A stretch of DNA of 64,000 nt, from contig JMRP01000009.1 in the NCBI GenBank assembly GCA_000708525.1, positions 2,588-66,587 of the forward strand. Reading direction: 5' to 3'. Both the position numbers and the translations under genes were made by a program. Every line of letters begins with the position of its first letter. The first letter of the stretch is position 1. Of the stretch, positions 44,798-53,177 are shown in pieces. Under the pieces are notes generated by a model. That model had not been told where the DNA came from. It did not search any database and worked only from the letters and a program-made list of their open reading frames with translations. The stretch is from Cyanobium sp. CACIAM 14. GTDB taxonomy: Bacteria; Cyanobacteriota; Cyanobacteriia; PCC-6307; Cyanobiaceae.

Positions 44798-45010
44798 ATG
44801 CCCTCCAGCTCAGCAGGCCAGGCCAGCGACGCCGTCTTACCCACGGCCGGCTCCTCCCACCACCCGCACGACCCCCGGCGCCAGGCCCTGATCGCCTCCC
44901 TCCGGGTCCGCTACAGCGTTGCCGAGCAACGACGGGATGCGGAGGCCAAGCGGGCCCTGTTCAAGGAGGCCGCCTACCTGGGGATCCGCCCGGACGCCTA
45001 CCAGGGCTGA
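44798..45010 (+). CDS. Hypothetical small protein (70 aa)
   Basis: In-frame ATG within track ORF 44468-45010. The C-terminal half (LIASLRVRYSVAEQRRDAEAKRALFKEAAYLGIRPDAY) looks protein-like. Confidence 0.3.
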   Translation: MPSSSAGQASDAVLPTAGSSHHPHDPRRQALIASLRVRYSVAEQRRDAEAKRALFKEAAYLGIRPDAYQG

Positions 45011-46065
45011 ACCAGGCGTCGGTAGATCGCCTGCTGGTGGAGGATGCGTGCCTCCAGCCGGTGAGGGGGACCCGTTCGGAACCCATCCCCGTAGCCGCGC
45101 TGGGCCGACTCGACCAGGGCCCGGTCCTCGGCCAGGAACTGGGCCATTTCCGCCATCAGGGCCGCGCCTTCGGCCTGCCGTTCCCCGGGCCCGAGCAGCC
45201 ACACCTGCATGCGGCAGCGGTCGAGGCATTCCGGCAGGAACTGGATCATGGCCAGGCGCCCGTCGGGCCACAGCAGCAGGTGGTTCCAGGGAGGCAGTCC
45301 GTAGGTGAGGAACTCGCCCTCAGCGCCGATCCGCGCCGCCGTAGCGGGAGCATTCGCCGCGGCCGGCTCCGCCCAGGGGGTGGAGAGCACGTTGGCCCAG
45401 GTGCCGAAGCGATGGCGGTAGTGGCGCACGGGGCCCTGCAGCCGGTGCAGGGTGGTGGGGTGGGCGATGGCGACGTGGTAGTCGTCGAGGGTGTTGTCAT
45501 GGGCGATCTTCCAGTTGCAGGCGAGGGTCTGCTCGTGGAAGGCCAGCGGAACCAGAGACATCTCCAGGGCGGGGCCCGCTTCCCGCAGCGGCAGGTCGAG
45601 CTGCTCCTCCAGAGGGATCGGGTCGCTCCCCGGGGCCACCCAGATCAACGAGCCCAGCACCCGGCAGCCGAGACGCTCCAGCGGCCACTCGCGGCGATCG
45701 AAAGGCGCGACGAACTCCGCCTCCCGTGCCGCCGCCAGCAGCTGGCCCCGGAGGTCGTAGGTCCAGCCGTGATAGGGACACACCAGCCGCCGGCAGCTCA
45801 CGCTCCCCTCCCCCGGCTCGCGGAAGGCCACGGCCCGGTGGGGGCAGCGGTTGCGGAAGGCCTGCATCACCCCATCGCTTCCATGGCAGAGCAGCACGGG
45901 TGCGCCCAGGATCTCCACCGCCCGCACGTGATGGCGGGGCAGTTCGGCTTCGGCGGCGACGGGATGCCAGAAGCGTGGGGCGTAACGCTCGCGCTCGATG
46001 GCGGCGATGGTCTCGGAGCGATAGACCTCCGCTGGCAGAAAGGACGGAGAAGAGGCGGCGTCCAT
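44998..46065 (-). CDS. Rieske [2Fe-2S] / non-heme-iron oxygenase alpha subunit
   Basis: CPHRAVAF ... CPYHGWTY Rieske motif, and NWKIAHDNTLDDYHVAIAHP in the catalytic domain. The start is 46065 (MDAASS) or 46092. Confidence 0.85.
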   Translation of the reverse strand: MDAASSPSFLPAEVYRSETIAAIERERYAPRFWHPVAAEAELPRHHVRAVEILGAPVLLCHGSDGVMQAFRNRCPHRAVAFREPGEGSVSCRRLVCPYHGWTYDLRGQLLAAAREAEFVAPFDRREWPLERLGCRVLGSLIWVAPGSDPIPLEEQLDLPLREAGPALEMSLVPLAFHEQTLACNWKIAHDNTLDDYHVAIAHPTTLHRLQGPVRHYRHRFGTWANVLSTPWAEPAAANAPATAARIGAEGEFLTYGLPPWNHLLLWPDGRLAMIQFLPECLDRCRMQVWLLGPGERQAEGAALMAEMAQFLAEDRALVESAQRGYGDGFRTGPPHRLEARILHQQAIYRRLVQPW

Positions 46066-46075
46066 GGAATGGTGC

Positions 46076-46843
46076 TCAGAGCAGGGCACCATCCAGGCCC
46101 CGCAGGCAACTGGCCAGCTCCTCGCGCAGCTCCAGGAAGGGCTGGGACACCCTCAAGTGGCGCAGGTCGGAGCGGTCCAGCGACACCGCCACCGACTGGA
46201 CGATCCTCCCGGGCCGGGGCGCCATGATGTGGACGGTGCCGGCGAGCAGCAGCGCCTCCTCGATGTCGTGAGTGATCAGCAGCACCGTGAAACCGGTGCG
46301 CCGCCAGAGGTCGTGCAGGAATTCCTGCATGGATTCCCTGATCTGAAGATCGAGGGCACCGAAGGGCTCATCCAGGAGCAGCACCTTCGGTTCGGTGGCC
46401 AGAGCCCGGGCGATCGCCACGCGCTGCTGCATGCCGCCGGAAAGTTCTCTCGGCAGCAGTCGCCCCGCATCGGCCAGTCCGACCACGTCGAGGAAATAGG
46501 CGGTCCGCTCGCGGATCTCCGCCTTGGAGCGTCCCTGGAGCGACATGCCGAAGGCGACGTTCTGCGCGGCCGTGAGCCAGGGATAGAGGCTGTACTTCTG
46601 GAAGACCATGCCCCGGTCGGAACCGGGCCCGCGCACCGGCTGGCCGTCGAGGCGGATCGAGCCTTCGCTGGGTCGGTCGAGGCCGGCGATCAGGCGCATC
46701 ACGGTGGATTTACCCGAACCCGAACTCCCCACAAGGGCCATGAACTGACCCGACACCAGTTCGAAGCTGACGCCATCGAGAACCAGCTTGCGATCCCGAC
46801 CTTCGCCGAAACTCTTGGAGACGTTGGAAACCTGGAGATGCAT
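46076..46843 (-). CDS. ABC transporter ATP-binding protein (NitT/TauT family type)
   Basis: GSSGSGKST (Walker A), LSGGMQQRVAIARAL, LLLDEPFGALD. Confidence 0.9.
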   Translation of the reverse strand: MHLQVSNVSKSFGEGRDRKLVLDGVSFELVSGQFMALVGSSGSGKSTVMRLIAGLDRPSEGSIRLDGQPVRGPGSDRGMVFQKYSLYPWLTAAQNVAFGMSLQGRSKAEIRERTAYFLDVVGLADAGRLLPRELSGGMQQRVAIARALATEPKVLLLDEPFGALDLQIRESMQEFLHDLWRRTGFTVLLITHDIEEALLLAGTVHIMAPRPGRIVQSVAVSLDRSDLRHLRVSQPFLELREELASCLRGLDGALL

Positions 46844-46847
46844 GGCG

Positions 46848-47624
46848 TCAATTGGCCCAGGAGCAGGCACGCCGCATCAGGAATCGGAAGCCCAGGTCGA
46901 TCATCAGGCCGATCAGACCGATCACGATCAGCCCCACGAAGATCTCGTCGGTACGTAGGAAACGCTGGGCCAGGCTGATGCGCTTGCCGAGACCTTCGGT
47001 GGCCGCCACGAGTTCGGCGACGATCACCAGATTCCATGCCGACGCCATGTTGATGCGGTAGGTGTCCAGCACCTGAGGGGCGATGTAGGGAGCCACGACC
47101 CTGGTGAGGATCGGCAGGCCCCTGCCACCGAGAGTGAGGGCCGTCTCCACCAGCTCGTGTGGCACGAACTTCACCGCATCCATGATCATCAAGGCGTTGA
47201 AGAAGAAGGTGCCGATGAAGATGAGCATCACCTTTGGAAGTTCCTCCAGCCCGAAATAGATGATCAGCAGGGGAATGAAGGCCGGCGCCGGCATGTAGCG
47301 GATGAGCGCCATCAGAGGCTCCAGCAATCGGCAGATCACCTTGTTGGTGCCCATGGCGATGCCTATCGGCAGGGCCAGACCCGCCGAGATCACGAAGCCC
47401 AGAAACACCCTGCGGATGCTGGCGATGGCATCCCCCACCAGGATCCCGCGCTGGAATTGACTGGCGCCCGCGTCCCACACCGCTCCGGGACTGGGAAGGA
47501 ACAGCTTGTCGACGCTGCCGCTGGCGGTGGTGAGCAACCACACCAGGAACACCGTGAGGATGCCGAGCACCCCCAGAAACCAGGGGTGGGCGAGGAGACG
47601 CCGCAGCGCCGGGTTGGAGGCCAT
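46848..47624 (-). CDS. ABC transporter permease (NitT/TauT family type)
   Basis: Six hydrophobic segments and an EAA-like loop (TLGGRGLPILTRVVAPYIAPQV). Confidence 0.85.
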   Translation of the reverse strand: MASNPALRRLLAHPWFLGVLGILTVFLVWLLTTASGSVDKLFLPSPGAVWDAGASQFQRGILVGDAIASIRRVFLGFVISAGLALPIGIAMGTNKVICRLLEPLMALIRYMPAPAFIPLLIIYFGLEELPKVMLIFIGTFFFNALMIMDAVKFVPHELVETALTLGGRGLPILTRVVAPYIAPQVLDTYRINMASAWNLVIVAELVAATEGLGKRISLAQRFLRTDEIFVGLIVIGLIGLMIDLGFRFLMRRACSWAN

Positions 47625-47629
47625 GGCGA

Positions 47630-48637
47630 TCAGCGGGCGTTGTCGACGAACTGGGAGTTGAACAGCTTCGTCAGGTCGGGTTTGCTCTTGGCGAGGCCCG
47701 TCTCCACCAGAAAGGCACTGATCTCCCCGGCGGCATAGGGAAGGGAGAGCATCGTGGTGCCCGGCTGGAAGTTCCTGCGGTTCTCCTCGAGGGTCTGGAT
47801 GGTGGTGCCGGCGTTGTACGCCTTGAACTCGGCCTCGCTGACGCCGGAGCGCGCCACCAGGATCGGCAGGGTGCCTGCGGGATCGTCCTTGATGGTCTTC
47901 AGCGTGGCGAACCAGGCATTGACGATCTTCTGGATCCTCTCGGGATTCTTGGCGACGAAGTCGGTCCGGCAGACGAGCAGATCACTGATCGCTCCAGGGT
48001 GATCCTTCGATGTGGACAGCGCCCGGCTCCCGGGGCGCTTCAGGGCCTGGGTGGTGAAGGGGGCATAGACCCCCGCCGCATCCACCTTGCCAGCGGCGAA
48101 GGCGGCGGCGGCCGCACCGGTCTCGAGGGGGACGAAGCTGATGTCCTTGGCCGAGAGACCGGCCTCGTGGAGCACCTTCAGCAGCAGGAAGTGATCGACC
48201 GTTCCTTCCTCCGCCGCCACCTTCTTGCCCTTCAGGCCAGGGATCGACTTGATTTCCGCGGCGGCGATGATCTGATCATTGCCCGTCGAGTAGTCGTTCT
48301 GGAGCACCACCTGCAGATCCGCCCCTCCGGCAATGGAGCTGATGGTGTCGTTGAGCGTCTGGCTGTTGCAATCGAGCTGGCCGGCGTTGAGGGCGTTGAT
48401 CGAATCGGTGTAGCCGTCGAACCACTGCATGGTGGCGGCCACGCCCTCTGCCTTGAACAGACCCTTCTCCTCGGTGACCTTCCAGGGGAACCAGCCCGGC
48501 CAGGCGCTGTAGCCGATCTTCACGGGCACCTCGACCTTCGAGGTGCCCTGGCAGCCGGCCAGCAGGCCGCCGCCGAGACTGAGGATCAGGGCCAGCAAGA
48601 GGACCCTGCGTCGAGGCGAGTGGTTGACGTGGAGCAT
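47630..48637 (-). CDS. ABC transporter periplasmic substrate-binding protein (NMT1/THI5-like, NitT/TauT type)
   Basis: Lipoprotein-type signal (LLAGCQG), then IGYSAWPGWFPW ... GKVDAAGVYAPF. Confidence 0.8.
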   Translation of the reverse strand: MLHVNHSPRRRVLLLALILSLGGGLLAGCQGTSKVEVPVKIGYSAWPGWFPWKVTEEKGLFKAEGVAATMQWFDGYTDSINALNAGQLDCNSQTLNDTISSIAGGADLQVVLQNDYSTGNDQIIAAAEIKSIPGLKGKKVAAEEGTVDHFLLLKVLHEAGLSAKDISFVPLETGAAAAAFAAGKVDAAGVYAPFTTQALKRPGSRALSTSKDHPGAISDLLVCRTDFVAKNPERIQKIVNAWFATLKTIKDDPAGTLPILVARSGVSEAEFKAYNAGTTIQTLEENRRNFQPGTTMLSLPYAAGEISAFLVETGLAKSKPDLTKLFNSQFVDNAR

Positions 48638-48714
48638 GGTGGTGGCCAGGTGAAACGAGGGGGCGGAGGATGGGATCAGATCGGGAATTGGTCGGCGGCT
48701 GCCGGTGGATTCAG

Positions 48715-48810
48715 GCTTCGGGCGATGGCGTAGGGGATGGCGTTGCAGATGGAGGCGCAGATTGCGTCGGGGATCTGGTCTGAGATCTGGTGAGCGATGG
48801 CGACGGAGAT
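48715..48810. repeat. Eight phase-locked degenerate 12-nt tandem units, each ending GAT on the plus strand (ATC-N9 on the minus strand)
   Basis: Units are gcttcgggcGAT, ggcgtagggGAT, ggcgttgcaGAT, ggaggcgcaGAT, tgcgtcgggGAT, ctggtctgaGAT, ctggtgagcGAT and ggcgacggaGAT. The array lies directly downstream of the GS-like stop (48815-48817). Confidence 0.8.
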
Positions 48811-48814
48811 CTCA

Positions 48815-50179
48815 TCAGAAGAATTCCAGATAACGCTGTTGCTCCCATTCGGAAACGGTCGAATGGTATGCCTCCCACTCCTCTCGTTTGTAGGTGACGA
48901 AAGCATTGAACATGGCATCACCGAATACGCTTTTTGCAAGTGGATCGTCGGCGAAGGCCTGGATCGCCTCCCCGAGGGTCCGTGGCAGCATCCGCAGGCC
49001 ACGTTCGGCCCGTTGCTCGGGGCTGAGCGTGTAGGCATTCACCAGATTGGGTGCCCCTGGATCCAGTTCCTCCCGGATGCCCTCGAGCCCGGCCGCCAGC
49101 ATCAGTGCACCTCCCAGATAGGGATTGCAGGAAATGTCCGCGGCCCTGCATTCCACCCTTCCGCCCGGTGAGGGAATCCGCAGCATGTTGGTGCGATTGT
49201 TGTTGCCGTAGCACACGAACACCGGTGCCCAGGTGAATCCCGACATGCTCCCCTGAGCCACCAGCCGCTTGTAGCTGTTGACCGTCGGGGCGATCACGGC
49301 GCAGATGGCGGGTGCATGTCGGAGCACGCCGGCGATGAACTGTTCGGCCAACCGTGTGACCTTCCCGGGAGTGGCCTCCGGGGTGGCGAAGAGGTTGGCG
49401 CCCGTCCGGTCGTCCGCCAGGGACATGTTGAAGTGGGCGCCACTGCCGGTGCGATCCCCGAAGGGCTTGGGCATGAAGGTGGCCAGCAACCCATGGCGGT
49501 GGGCGATCTCCTTGGCCATCAGCTTGAAGAAGGTCAGCCGGTCCGCCATGGCGAGCACCTCGGCGTAGTCGAAGTCGGTCTCGAACTGGCCGGGTCCGTC
49601 CTCGTGGTCGAAGGAATACACCCCCCACCCCAGGGCGTTCATCGCCTCCACCAGTTCCCCGAGCCAGGGGAGGTTGTCGAGCAGCCCGCGCACGTCGTAG
49701 GCCGGCTTGTCGAGGGTGTCGCGGTCGCTGAAGGGAACCCAGCGGCCGGTGGCCGCCTTTCTGAGCACGAAGAACTCGGTCTCGACACCGAGGTTGAAAC
49801 GGAAGCCCATCGCCGCCGCCTCCGCACGCACCCGCTGCAGGATGTTGCGGCTGCAGGCCTCGAAGGGTTGGCCGTGCAGGTGCAGATCACTGGCGAACCA
49901 GGCCACCTCGCTCTGCCAGGGCAGCACCGTGACACTGGCGGGATCGGGGACGGCGGCCACCTCGTCGTCGCTCACCTCCTGGGGCACCCCGTCGAGGGCG
50001 GCCCCCGTGAACAGTTCGGAGCCGCCCATCATCTGGCCGAGGTGGGCCAGCGGAACCGCCTTGGCCTTGCTCACGCCGTGGAGGTCGACGAAGCTCGCCA
50101 GGGCGTAGCGGACGCCCTTGGCCCGCAGGTCGGCCTGCAGGCTGGTGACGGCATCGGAGGCCGGATGCTGGTGGACCAT
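48815..50179 (-). CDS. Glutamine synthetase family protein (GS-I-like, gamma-glutamyl ligase type, substrate unknown)
   Basis: GVETEFFV, HEDGPGQFETD, GSGAHFNMSL, SYKRL and NNRTNMLRIP. Its ATG shares nucleotide 50179 with the hypB-like stop (TGATG). Confidence 0.85.
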   Translation of the reverse strand: MVHQHPASDAVTSLQADLRAKGVRYALASFVDLHGVSKAKAVPLAHLGQMMGGSELFTGAALDGVPQEVSDDEVAAVPDPASVTVLPWQSEVAWFASDLHLHGQPFEACSRNILQRVRAEAAAMGFRFNLGVETEFFVLRKAATGRWVPFSDRDTLDKPAYDVRGLLDNLPWLGELVEAMNALGWGVYSFDHEDGPGQFETDFDYAEVLAMADRLTFFKLMAKEIAHRHGLLATFMPKPFGDRTGSGAHFNMSLADDRTGANLFATPEATPGKVTRLAEQFIAGVLRHAPAICAVIAPTVNSYKRLVAQGSMSGFTWAPVFVCYGNNNRTNMLRIPSPGGRVECRAADISCNPYLGGALMLAAGLEGIREELDPGAPNLVNAYTLSPEQRAERGLRMLPRTLGEAIQAFADDPLAKSVFGDAMFNAFVTYKREEWEAYHSTVSEWEQQRYLEFF

Positions 50180-50880
50180 CAGGCGGACACCAGGGTGGGG
50201 GTGGACCGAACCGCGCTGAGCTGATCGACGAGCCAGCCGTGCCAGGCCTCGAAGCCCTCACCGCTGCTGGCGGAGAGGCGAAAGACGGCGGTGCGGGGGT
50301 TGACCTGGCGGATGTGATCCTCGATCCGCTCCACGTCCACCGGCAGGTGCGGCAGCAGATCCACCTTGGTGATCAGCACGCAGTCCGCCTCCCGGAACAT
50401 CACCGGGTACTTGAGGGGCTTGTCGTCGCCCTCGGTGACGCTCAGCAGCGCCACCTTGCGGTGTTCGCCGACGGCGAACTCCGCCGGGCAGACCAGATTG
50501 CCCACGTTCTCCACCCAGAGCACGTCCAGCTCGGCCGGATCCAGTTGCTGCCGGAGCAGTTTCAGGCCGCCGCTCACCATGGCGGCATCGAGGTGGCAGG
50601 CCCGGCCGGTGGTGATCGGCACCACGGGAATCCCGAGGGCCTCCAGACGCCTGGCATCGAGCTGGGTGGTCATGTCGCCTTCCAGCACGGCCATCGACCA
50701 GCGGCTGGAGAGGGCGGCGAGGCTGCGTTCCAGCAGGGAGGTCTTGCCGGCGCCGGGGCTGCTCATCACGTTGAGGCAGAGCAGGTTCCAGGCATCGAAG
50801 TGGGCGCGGTTGTGCTCGGCCCGGTGCTGGTTGGCCGCCAGCAGGTTGAGGCCGAGGTTGTCTTCGAGGGGCATGTGCAT
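50179..50880 (-). CDS. hypB: HypB-type nickel-insertion GTPase (GhaB-like by context)
   Basis: [11 protein letters not shown] (P-loop), [15 protein letters not shown]. Confidence 0.85.
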
Positions 50881-50886
50881 GGCAGG

Positions 50887-51261
50887 TCAGCCGACGGGGA
50901 TGGGGGAGGGGCAGGAATAGGCGACGGAGCGGATCCGCAGCTCCCGGCCGCTGACGATCTCCTCCATCGGGTGCCGGCAGCAGGGGGAGCGATAGCCGGA
51001 CTCGGGATCGGGGCTGTAGGTGGCCTGGCAGCGAAGGCAGCGACCGATCAGCTGGACCGGCTCGATCACGAGCTCGGCTCCTTCGAGCCAGCTGCCCCGC
51101 ACGGCGTCCGCCCAGGTGAGCACCAGCTGATCGGGCTCGACGCAGGTGAAGGTGCCCACCTGGAGATGGACCCGATCCACCCTGGGCACCCGGGGGGCAT
51201 GCTGCTGCTTCCACTCGTTCATGGAGAGCAGCAGGCAGCGGGTCATGTCGACTTCGTGCAT
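50887..51261 (-). CDS. hypA: HypA-type nickel metallochaperone (GhaA-like by context)
   Basis: MHE N-terminus (Ni site), CLRC ... PCC zinc-site region, size 124 aa. Confidence 0.8.
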   Translation of the reverse strand: MHEVDMTRCLLLSMNEWKQQHAPRVPRVDRVHLQVGTFTCVEPDQLVLTWADAVRGSWLEGAELVIEPVQLIGRCLRCQATYSPDPESGYRSPCCRHPMEEIVSGRELRIRSVAYSCPSPIPVG

Positions 51262-51265
51262 GCCC

Positions 51266-52480
51266 CTATCTCCAGGCCCGGTCGACCTGCAGGTTGCAGG
51301 TGGGGGAGATCCAGCCGGGCATGGCCTGGCGGGGCAGCTGACCGCTGACCACCAGATGGGCCAGGGTGTCGCAGATGACCCGGGTGGCCATGAGGGACGT
51401 CATGTCGCTGATGTCGTAGGGGGGGGACACCTCCACCACCTCGAGGCCGCAGACCGGCACGTTGCGCACGATCAGTTCCAGCAGCTTGAGGGCTTCGCGG
51501 GGCAGCAGGCCGCCCGGTTCGGGCCAGCCGGTGCCGGGCACGAAGCCGGCGTCGATGCAGTCGATGTCGAAGGAGATGTAGACGCAGTCGGTGCCGTCGG
51601 TGGCCCGCTCGATGGCGAACCGCGCCGCCGCCTCCAGGCCCATGTCGCAGATGTCGGTGACCGTGAGGACATTGGTGCCCCGTTCGCGGCAGACCTTCAC
51701 CCCTTCCCGCGGCACCTGCCAGCCGCCGATGCCCAGCTGCACCAGGTTCTCGGCCGGGGCGTTCGCCATGTTGGTGGCGTGGAACCACGGCGTGGTGTGC
51801 ATGCGCTCGTCGAGGTCGGTCTCCTGGGTGTCGACGTGGCGGTCGAAATGGATGATGCCCACCTTCCGCTCGCCCAGGTGCCGGCAGACGCCCCGCACCG
51901 TGGGAAAGCCGATCGAGTGGTCGCCGCCCAGGATCACCGGGAAGGCGCCGCTGGCGAAGACGTGGGCGATCCCCTTGGAGATCTGATCGAAGCTCTTCTC
52001 GTTGTTGGCGGGGATGGTGAAGATGTCACCCACGTCGCAGAGGCGGATCTGCTCGCGCAGGTCGACCCCCATCTCGTAGTTGTAGGGGGTGTAGAGGGCC
52101 GAGATCCGCCGGATCCCCTGGGGACCGAAGCGGGTGCCGGGGCGGTAGGTGGTGCCGCTGTCGTGGGGGACTCCCACCACGGCCACGTCGAACTCACCGA
52201 CGCGGTTCACGTCCTCCAGGTAGGGCGCCTTCATGAAGGTGTTGATGCCCGCGAAATGGGGCAGCTCCCCGCGGGAGAAGGTGGAGATGCGGCGATCGAC
52301 GATGCTCTCGGCGGCTTCCAGGCCCCAGCGGTGGGCCTGCTCCACCTCCTGCTGCCAGCCGGTGAGGGGCAGGGACGCCTCCCTGGCCAGAGCCCGGGCT
52401 CCTTCGCCACCGGGTGGAGCCGGACCACGATCGAAGGCCGCGGCCGCGTCGGCCGGACTGCCGCTGGACGGTTCGTTCAC
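51266..52480 (-). CDS. Ureohydrolase (arginase/agmatinase fold), probable Ni-dependent guanidine hydrolase GdmH type
   Basis: ILGGDHSI, HFDRHVD, SFDIDCID and EVVEVSP metal-site motifs. It is followed by hypA/hypB-like genes and preceded by a guanidine-I riboswitch. GTG start at 52480 follows AAGAGG. Confidence 0.75.
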   Translation of the reverse strand: MNEPSSGSPADAAAAFDRGPAPPGGEGARALAREASLPLTGWQQEVEQAHRWGLEAAESIVDRRISTFSRGELPHFAGINTFMKAPYLEDVNRVGEFDVAVVGVPHDSGTTYRPGTRFGPQGIRRISALYTPYNYEMGVDLREQIRLCDVGDIFTIPANNEKSFDQISKGIAHVFASGAFPVILGGDHSIGFPTVRGVCRHLGERKVGIIHFDRHVDTQETDLDERMHTTPWFHATNMANAPAENLVQLGIGGWQVPREGVKVCRERGTNVLTVTDICDMGLEAAARFAIERATDGTDCVYISFDIDCIDAGFVPGTGWPEPGGLLPREALKLLELIVRNVPVCGLEVVEVSPPYDISDMTSLMATRVICDTLAHLVVSGQLPRQAMPGWISPTCNLQVDRAWR

Positions 52481-52511
52481 TCAGACCTCTTGGCACGGTG
52501 GGAAAGGGCGG

Positions 52512-52639
52512 TCTCCCGGGCTTTTGTCCCTCCGTGCCACTCACAGGGGGCCGGAAGACCGCTCCCTGGGAGTGCGCTTCTCTCGGACCAGACATCGGGC
52601 AGATCAGGCGAAGCCTGACCTGCCGGACCGGAACCCTAG
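52512..52639 (-). promoter_or_regulatory. Guanidine-I riboswitch (ykkC class) aptamer
   Basis: The minus strand reads CUAGGGUUCCGG ... CUGGUCCGAGAG ... CACGGAGGGACAAAAGCCCGGGAGA. These are the three invariant blocks of the ykkC consensus in the correct order, about 30 nt upstream of the start codon. Confidence 0.8.
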
Positions 52640-52687
52640 AAGCAACTGTCCGCCCGCTCATCTTCACCGGCCCTCCCGGCGCAGGTT

Positions 52688-52701
52688 GTGACGGTTGCTA
52701 C
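52688..52701 (-). promoter_or_regulatory. Candidate NtcA-type site upstream of the riboswitch
   Basis: The minus strand reads GTAGCAACCGTCAC (GTA-N8-CAC), followed after 22 nt by GAAGAT (-10-like). This is about 25 nt upstream of the aptamer. Confidence 0.3.
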
Positions 52702-52734: not shown

Positions 52735-53001
52735 TCACGGCTCAGGCCTCGCGACCCCGCTCTCGCGGCGCAGCTGCAGGAACAGGTAGGCGGGGTCCTT
52801 GTAGTGGCCCGGCAGGCACTGGTGCAGCTGCTCGAGCCGCTGCCAGCAGACCGTGCGCTGGATCTTCCGGAGCGTGCGCCCTTCACGGACCAGCAGGCGA
52901 AGCGCCTTGCAGTACATGGCGTAGTTGGCCTCCAGTTCCCCGATCGTGACCTTCGGACGCTTGACCTTCGGATCAGGGGCGGGAACCGGTCGGGCGTTCA
53001 T
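52735..53001 (-). CDS. Small conserved protein with an RTVCW motif. Paralog of 30069-30332.
   Basis: MNARPVPAPDPKVKRPKVTIGELEANYAMYCKALRLLVREGRTLRKIQRTVCWQRLEQLHQCLPGHYKDPAYLFLQL. Confidence 0.6.
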   Translation of the reverse strand: MNARPVPAPDPKVKRPKVTIGELEANYAMYCKALRLLVREGRTLRKIQRTVCWQRLEQLHQCLPGHYKDPAYLFLQLRRESGVARPEP

Positions 53002-53177
53002 CGGACATCCTTCCGGGGCGGACCCCGCAGCGATGGCCCCACTGTTGGGCGCCGGCCAGCGGCGGGCGCCCCCCAAACGGGGACAATCCGCTTCTTGAGG
53101 GTTTGCGGACCCGACCGCAGCGCCGATGCTGCGGCCTTCCGATTCGGTTAATGTTTCAACAGCGACAAGCGTCGGTG

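Follow-up and report, generated by a model that had tools for sequence, protein, structure and literature searches.

A guanidine-I riboswitch with a terminator-less, likely translational platform at the head of a guanidine hydrolase operon in Cyanobium

The stretch of Cyanobium sp. CACIAM 14 DNA analysed here (64 kb in length, referred to below as the window) carries on its minus strand a cluster of genes for the hydrolysis and import of guanidine, preceded by a leader that contains a guanidine-I aptamer and a putative promoter. In the direction of reading, these features are:

52688-52701, minus strand: NtcA-type box GTAGCAACCGTCAC (GTA-N8-CAC), recognized from its sequence and its fixed offset in relatives
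52660-52665, minus strand: -10-like hexamer GAAGAT, 22 nt past the NtcA box, placed by NtcA promoter geometry
52511-52650, minus strand: guanidine-I aptamer (RF00442), 75 bits (gathering score 63), supported by covariation
51266-52480, minus strand: gdmH, orthologue of the Ni-dependent guanidine hydrolase (404 aa, GTG start), PF00491 at 5.5e-77
50887-51261, minus strand: ghaA, HypA-like Ni metallochaperone, PF01155 at 3e-23, 4-nt gap after gdmH
50179-50880, minus strand: ghaB, HypB-like GTPase, TIGR00073 at 2.4e-82, 6-nt gap after ghaA
48815-50179, minus strand: GS-like ligase (TIGR03105 type), sharing 1 nt with the ghaB stop
46076-48637, minus strand: gimABC-like ABC importer, after a 177-nt gap behind the GS-like gene
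47630-48637, minus strand: SsuA/NMT1-type binding protein (gimA-like) of this importer
46848-47624, minus strand: permease of this importer
46076-46870, minus strand: ATPase of this importer
44998-46092, minus strand: Rieske/GbcA-like oxygenase, PF00355 and PF00848, weak GbcA match, 17-nt overlap with the ATPase gene

The gdmH product is an arginase-fold protein (PF00491), and its residues 16-404, N-terminal extension included, match Sll1077 (PDB 7ESR/7OI1), the best solved relative, with an E-value of 1.3e-224. An earlier reading, made from the letters of the window alone (the sequence-only reading), had called this ureohydrolase a guanidine hydrolase, and the orthology with GdmH bears it out. 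The GTG at 52480 is preceded by an in-frame TGA, no other in-frame start is found ahead of the conserved GdmH N-terminus, and same-genus genomes carry ATG in its place.

As in Synechocystis sp. PCC 6803, the orthologous gdmH-ghaA-ghaB unit comes straight after RF00442, and gimABC-type genes are adjacent. The RF00442 element in the 5' UTR of Synechocystis gdmH (sll1077) binds guanidine with a Kd of ~58 uM and confers a 4-5-fold guanidine induction on a GFP reporter, while NtcA co-regulates the gdmH operon and GimABC imports guanidine (Itzenhauser et al., PNAS 2025, PMC12704784). The pairing of this riboswitch with gdmH under NtcA control is already known and validated in Synechocystis (PMC12704784), and it is by analogy with that homologue, the only one for which both have been shown, that the window riboswitch would be expected to bind guanidine and to be activated by it. 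Unlike in Synechocystis, a GS-like ligase gene and a Rieske oxygenase gene are inserted or appended in the window; in marine Synechococcus, gdmH adjoins GS genes (PMC12704784). The GS-like ligase gene of the window is translationally coupled to ghaB. Furthermore, whereas gimA of Synechocystis has a separate NtcA promoter (sll1077-sll1082), the window has no second NtcA box, none of the GTA-N8-TAC-like kind being found in the 177-nt gap before the gimA-like gene (48638-48814). Because of this lack of a second box, the gimABC-like genes appear to be co-transcribed with the riboswitch-led unit, and the transporter genes may here be under riboswitch control.

The promoter in front of the leader was read with the help of the same system. 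In Synechocystis, the gdmH promoter is activated by NtcA from a box centred ~42 nt upstream of the transcription start site (TSS) (PMC12704784). With the box of the window centred likewise at about -42, the TSS is predicted at 52653, that is, 41.5 nt from the box centre, on the initial G of an invariant GCGGA. Among the relatives, 43 of 60 have a GTA-N8-[TC]AC box placed -58 to -62 relative to CTAGGG, the others having GT-N10-AC at the same offset, and a GANNAT-like hexamer is spaced from the NtcA box as it is in the window. An NtcA-activated promoter upstream of the riboswitch is predicted at the level of sequence. The upstream neighbour, a DUF3136 protein of a cyanobacterial family of unknown function (52735-53076, minus strand), stops 34 nt short of the NtcA box.

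The 64-kb window was scanned with cmscan against all families of Rfam 15. RF00442 (Guanidine-I) was matched at 52511-52650 of the minus strand over model positions 1-107 of 107, with 75 bits (gathering score 63) and an E-value, given for the whole window, of 1.7e-11. This is the sole above-threshold Rfam match in the window; a permissive re-scan of the leader gave no competing or other related family, and the genome (3.2 Mb, 71 contigs) holds one RF00442 copy. The three conserved blocks that the sequence-only reading had quoted are present in the minus-strand leader, CUAGGGUUCCG at 52639-52629, GGUCCGAGAG at 52589-52580 and CACGGAGGGACAAAAGCCCGGGAGAC at 52536-52511, and the RF00442 score on which it had made the identification depend clears the threshold. 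Its span of 52512-52639 does lie inside the element, but it omits the 5' strand of P1 (52644-52640) together with the conserved 5' tail; the full element extends from ~52653 to 52478 of the minus strand, beyond the Rfam match. The parts of the aptamer are located as follows:

52644-52639 with 52580-52575, minus strand: P1
52636-52635 with 52586-52585, minus strand: P1a
52574-52567 with 52545-52538, minus strand: P2
52536-52513, minus strand: P3, which with the pocket is invariant in all 59 aligned relatives (roles from PMC5340920)
52582/52581, minus strand: G37/A38 dinucleotide bulge, from GGUCCGA-GA-G mapped onto PMC5340920 and PMC6031431

Two insertions, one of 22 nt in P1b that forms a perfect 12-bp hairpin extension and one of 17 nt in P2, account for a window score below those of its relatives, which reach up to 91 bits.

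The guanidine-I aptamers of Dickeya dadantii and Nitrosomonas europaea were reportedly described in 2017, by Nelson and by Reiss. The window aptamer has the same P1/P1a/P1b/P2/P3 architecture as these two and is identical to them in the guanidinium-contacting and pocket nucleotides (Battaglia 2017, PMC5340920), while differing from both in the 12-bp extension of P1b and a longer P2 hairpin, with 140 nt against the 107-position model. For the pocket we mapped the Dickeya dadantii crystal-structure numbering onto the window and used the residue roles given there: G67 forms the floor, G68 acts through its phosphate and G85 through its Hoogsteen edge, and C64 and G84 form a long-range pair (PMC5340920). 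The equivalents in the window are 52536 (C64), 52533 (G67, the pocket floor), 52532 (G68), 52530-52528 (G70-72), 52525-52522 (the A-loop, AAAA), 52520-52518 (C80-82), 52516 (G84), 52515 (G85) and 52513 (G87), and the G37/A38 bulge, G67, G68, G85, the C64-G84 pair and the A-loop are all of canonical identity.

In ykkC subtype 2, which responds to ppGpp or PRPP, the A38/A46 and G67 positions are pyrimidines (PMC6031431). The window has A at 52581 (the A38 equivalent) and G at 52533 (the G67 equivalent), which makes its aptamer one of subtype 1; the subtype-2 signature, a pyrimidine at the A38/A46 equivalent and an altered S-turn, is absent, and A and the canonical GGG are found there instead. 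With the Rfam score, the canonical pocket, the covariation described below and a GdmH orthologue directly downstream, both the riboswitch identity proposed in the sequence-only reading and its link to guanidine hydrolase hold, and the leader from ~52653 to 52478 of the minus strand is almost certainly a functional guanidine-I (ykkC subtype 1) riboswitch.

Exactly one above-threshold copy of RF00442 is present in each of 61 out of 151 sampled genomes of the same GTDB family, and in every family locus examined the aptamer lies just upstream of a gdmH-type ORF, so that a chance match can be dismissed. The nearest named genomes by GdmH are Cyanobium and freshwater Synechococcus, at 92-93% identity. 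For covariation, 59 distinct aptamers were aligned and evaluated against an explicit consensus structure of 27 pairs, with 500 shuffles and five measures. The structure pairs 91.6% of the cells, with both-sided changes in 17 of the 27 pairs; none of the 500 shuffles equalled the observed covariation on even one of the five measures, and pairing in slid registers never exceeds 58%. The three blocks are invariant in this alignment and P1, P1b and P2 are variable. It is in these three helices that covariation over the 59 relatives supports the P1/P1a/P2/P3 fold presumed in the sequence-only reading, P1a and P3 being invariant and hence uninformative.

What follows the aptamer is less usual. A terminator scan of the window leader found no hairpin with a U-tract, and a terminator-like platform is present in about 1 of the 61 picocyanobacterial family leaders. 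In a comparison set of 38 gdmH leaders of other cyanobacteria (Nostoc, Leptolyngbya, Acaryochloris and further non-picocyanobacterial genomes), at least 22 have one, even under a strict pattern. The classical platform of these non-picocyanobacterial leaders consists of a CTCC[TC]GGGC stretch able to pair with P3's 3' strand, and then a T-run, and the start codon is mostly 60-170 nt away. In the picocyanobacterial family, on the other hand, the spacer from aptamer to start codon measures 17-38 nt and has a C content of 59%, compared with a background of 34%. The window conforms to its family and differs from Synechocystis PCC 6803 in lacking a terminator-type platform and in having its start codon, the GTG at 52480, 31 nt past the aptamer. 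Transcriptional control in Synechocystis was itself inferred only by analogy (PMC12704784). It seems that the usual terminator was lost in the picocyanobacterial lineage and that the aptamer was wired to the translation start instead.

The sequence-only reading had considered translational control plausible, with an AAGAGG element and the GTG start following shortly after the aptamer. Both are where it placed them, and translational control is a reasonable proposal because no terminator exists; the sequestration of the Shine-Dalgarno (SD) element that it implies is, however, not seen in the folds. The elements concerned, together with the conserved tails of the aptamer, are:

52649-52653, minus strand: 5' tail GCGGA, carried by 60 of 61 family leaders and a candidate for the 5' side of a P0-like helix
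52507-52510, minus strand: 3' tail CCGC, carried by all 61 family leaders and a candidate for the 3' side of that helix
52491-52503, minus strand: anti-P3 strand UCCCACCGUGCCA, pairing with 52539-52527 (UGGCACGGAGGGA) over 12 bp with one A.A mismatch
52486-52491, minus strand: SD-like AAGAGG, 5 nt before the start codon, at which the anti-P3 helix ends

The anti-P3 helix has a pairing probability of ~0.9 in the free ensemble, and its duplex energy is -23.3 kcal/mol, whereas 1000 shuffles gave -13.0 +/- 2.6 (fraction 0.001). It is conserved in six clade relatives, which share with the window a spacer in which (A/C)AGAGG comes after CCCACC(C)GUGCC and the start codon 5-6 nt later. Because G67 and P3's 5' strand are taken up in it, the anti-P3 helix and the ligand-binding fold cannot coexist. 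In the RNAs of Dickeya dadantii and Nitrosomonas europaea, it is the 3' part of P3 that enters the alternative terminator stem, whereas the competitor in the window pairs with the 5' part and is followed by no U-tract. Across the family, specific anti-P3 complementarity beyond composition was significant in 9 of the 31 members tested by spacer shuffles, a test that is conservative since composition holds much of the signal. In most relatives the anti-P3 strand directly abuts the AUG.

As for the ribosome-binding region itself, (A/C)AGAGG is kept in five of the six other clade relatives read, the remaining one having AGAGC, and most of the picocyanobacterial family has no SD. Neither AAGAGG nor the start codon is itself base-paired in the window's ligand-free ensemble. 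AAGAGG is ~66% unpaired in the free and the aptamer-locked ensembles alike, and SD sequestration was rejected. The accessibility of the initiation region in the window is 0.41 free and 0.44 locked; as the two barely differ, occlusion of the ribosome would have to be steric or kinetic. In the relatives, the mean rises from 0.38 free to 0.62 locked, with a higher value when locked in 56 of 57, although this comparison is biased, the locked-state model removing pairing partners and thereby partly forcing the increase. Keeping the spacer single-stranded costs 8-24 kcal/mol in silico, and the OFF helix is far more stable than P3, an imbalance that points to a switch which is probably kinetic.

The two tails are conserved throughout the family and neither was seen in the non-picocyanobacterial cyanobacterial leaders compared; GCGGA/CCGC tails also set the window aptamer apart from that of Synechocystis PCC 6803. 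The P0 helix that they could form (GCGG:CCGC) reaches a probability above 0.5 in 78% of aptamer-only folds, though not in that of the window, and it shows no covariation, as neither strand varies. Its median probability rises from 0.00 to 0.73 once the spacer is held single-stranded, and in the ensembles P0 and the anti-P3 pairing of spacer and aptamer exclude each other, which is partly a consequence of nested-only folding. A P0-like closing helix has been described for those variants of ykkC that respond to ppGpp and PRPP (PMC6031431); guanidine-I RNAs are said to lack it. The window resembles subtypes 2a and 2b in having conserved, pairable extensions at both ends of the aptamer (GCGG:CCGC), and the paired tails would, as there, close a four-way junction taking part in the expression platform (Knappenberger 2018, PMC6031431). 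It is unlike them in its A and G discriminators and its guanidine gene context, and its P0 is predicted only, with no covariation.

Three other pairings were considered and rejected. A guanidine-OFF logic could be built on a weak pairing of the released strand with GG and GUG in the locked ensemble; this pairing does not occur in the clade relatives and the logic would make no physiological sense. Pairing of AGACC (52514-52510) with GGUCU (52487-52483) is not conserved in the clade relatives. The P2 apical loop GCGGUCUUCCGG (52561-52550) pairs with CCGGGAGACCGC (52519-52508, the 3' strand of P3 and the tail) and dominates the aptamer-only MFE structure; it was treated as an in-silico competitor and is probably incidental, since even members of the genus do not conserve the P2 insert.

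Taken as a whole, we favour an explanation in which a guanidine-I riboswitch leads the mRNA of an NtcA-promoted gdmH operon and likely acts as a translational ON switch, and we put its probability at roughly 0.8. The riboswitch would stand at the very 5' end of an mRNA comprising gdmH-ghaA-ghaB, the GS-like ligase, the gimABC-like genes and the Rieske oxygenase gene. Without guanidine, the spacer strand 52503-52491 would invade the aptamer and pair with 52539-52527, taking up G67 and the 5' strand of P3, and the resulting 12-bp anti-P3 helix would abut the ribosome-binding region and keep the gene OFF. With guanidine bound, P3 and the pocket would be locked, possibly clamped by the P0-like GCGG:CCGC helix, and the spacer would be freed for the loading of 30S subunits; the effect of the ligand would be kinetic, slowing strand invasion while 30S loading takes place.

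The same riboswitch might instead act on transcription, with the anti-P3 hairpin (52539-52491) serving as a non-canonical terminator or pause site that has no U-tract. The characterised guanidine-I riboswitches disrupt a terminator and that of Synechocystis is assumed to do alike (PMC12704784), the gdmH leaders of other cyanobacteria have canonical terminators, and the OFF hairpin is strong (-27.6 kcal/mol). Yet AAGAGGUCUGAGUG follows the helix, with no U-run, and the leader gave no match in the terminator scan; furthermore, in most relatives the helix ends right at the AUG, and the window strand pairs with the 5' side of P3 where classical terminators use the 3' side, all of which makes this account unlikely. 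A second possibility, that the main output is mRNA stability, with P0 in the bound state burying the 5' GCGG against 5'-end attack by RNase E/J and the free state leaving it exposed, would suit both a predicted TSS at the G of the invariant GCGGA and the formation of P0 only when the spacer is released. It is nevertheless a purely inferential and quite improbable one, as the TSS is predicted and P0 shows no covariation, and the 5' GCGG is often paired elsewhere in the free state (mean probability 0.51).

Least credible of all, to the point of being very nearly dismissed, is that the element is a subtype-2 look-alike whose ligand is ppGpp, PRPP or something else, or a relic in decay that has stopped binding guanidine. 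Conserved 5' and 3' tails able to form P0 are indeed a hallmark of subtypes 2a and 2b, but the discriminators at 52581 and 52533 are not pyrimidines, the pocket residues are invariant in 59 relatives, the genes downstream are those of guanidine hydrolysis and import, and the leader scores with no other Rfam family. As regards the controlled step, translational activation by guanidine is the best reading, at somewhat better than even odds.

For the lineage, a more specific proposal may be made, which we offer tentatively and do not ourselves expect to hold in full. In picocyanobacteria (Cyanobium, Synechococcus; Prochlorococcaceae), the terminator would have been replaced by a compact platform in which a P0-like clamp, formed by the mRNA 5' GCGG and CCGC, closes round a subtype-1 aptamer, while a C-rich and mostly SD-less spacer switches between invading P3 in its 5' half and landing ribosomes, giving a ligand-gated, largely SD-independent translational switch. 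Such a compact platform appears to be undescribed so far; the terminator-less, lineage-specific platform is the sole modestly new aspect of a system that is otherwise ordinary. It offers a natural case of one aptamer class rewired from transcriptional to translational control, as well as a possible very short (~175 nt) guanidine-inducible translational switch for cyanobacterial engineering, although the practical value is small since the riboswitch-gdmH system is already published. For annotation, the arginase-family gene that follows this riboswitch should be recorded as part of a guanidine hydrolase operon under the dual control of NtcA (nitrogen status) and guanidine. The locus also backs the view that picocyanobacteria, freshwater and marine alike, use free guanidine as a source of nitrogen.

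Riboswitch control of gdmH is not universal. By pattern match, gdmH orthologues of 83-86% identity have no aptamer at L088-L097 and L099 (Prochlorococcus single-cell genomes) or at L081, L098, L105, L107, L109 and L134, and an Rfam scan of ten such loci (L081, L088, L089, L091, L094, L098, L105, L107, L109 and L134) found no RF00442 within ~5 kb; in the Prochlorococcus gdmH loci checked, the riboswitch seems to have been lost. At a few other loci gdmH itself may be altered. At L031 (G068), ~30-100 nt past the aptamer, a short inserted palindrome, gacaacaagagccc...gggctcttgttgtc, apparently splits the 5' end of gdmH; its flank is duplicated, it is possibly a miniature mobile element, and the ORF picks up again at a TTG. 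At L004 (G112) and L022 (G126), the gdmH ORFs behind intact riboswitches end early, at 190 aa and 327 aa, while the loci continue; these early stops may be frameshifts or mark pseudogenes.
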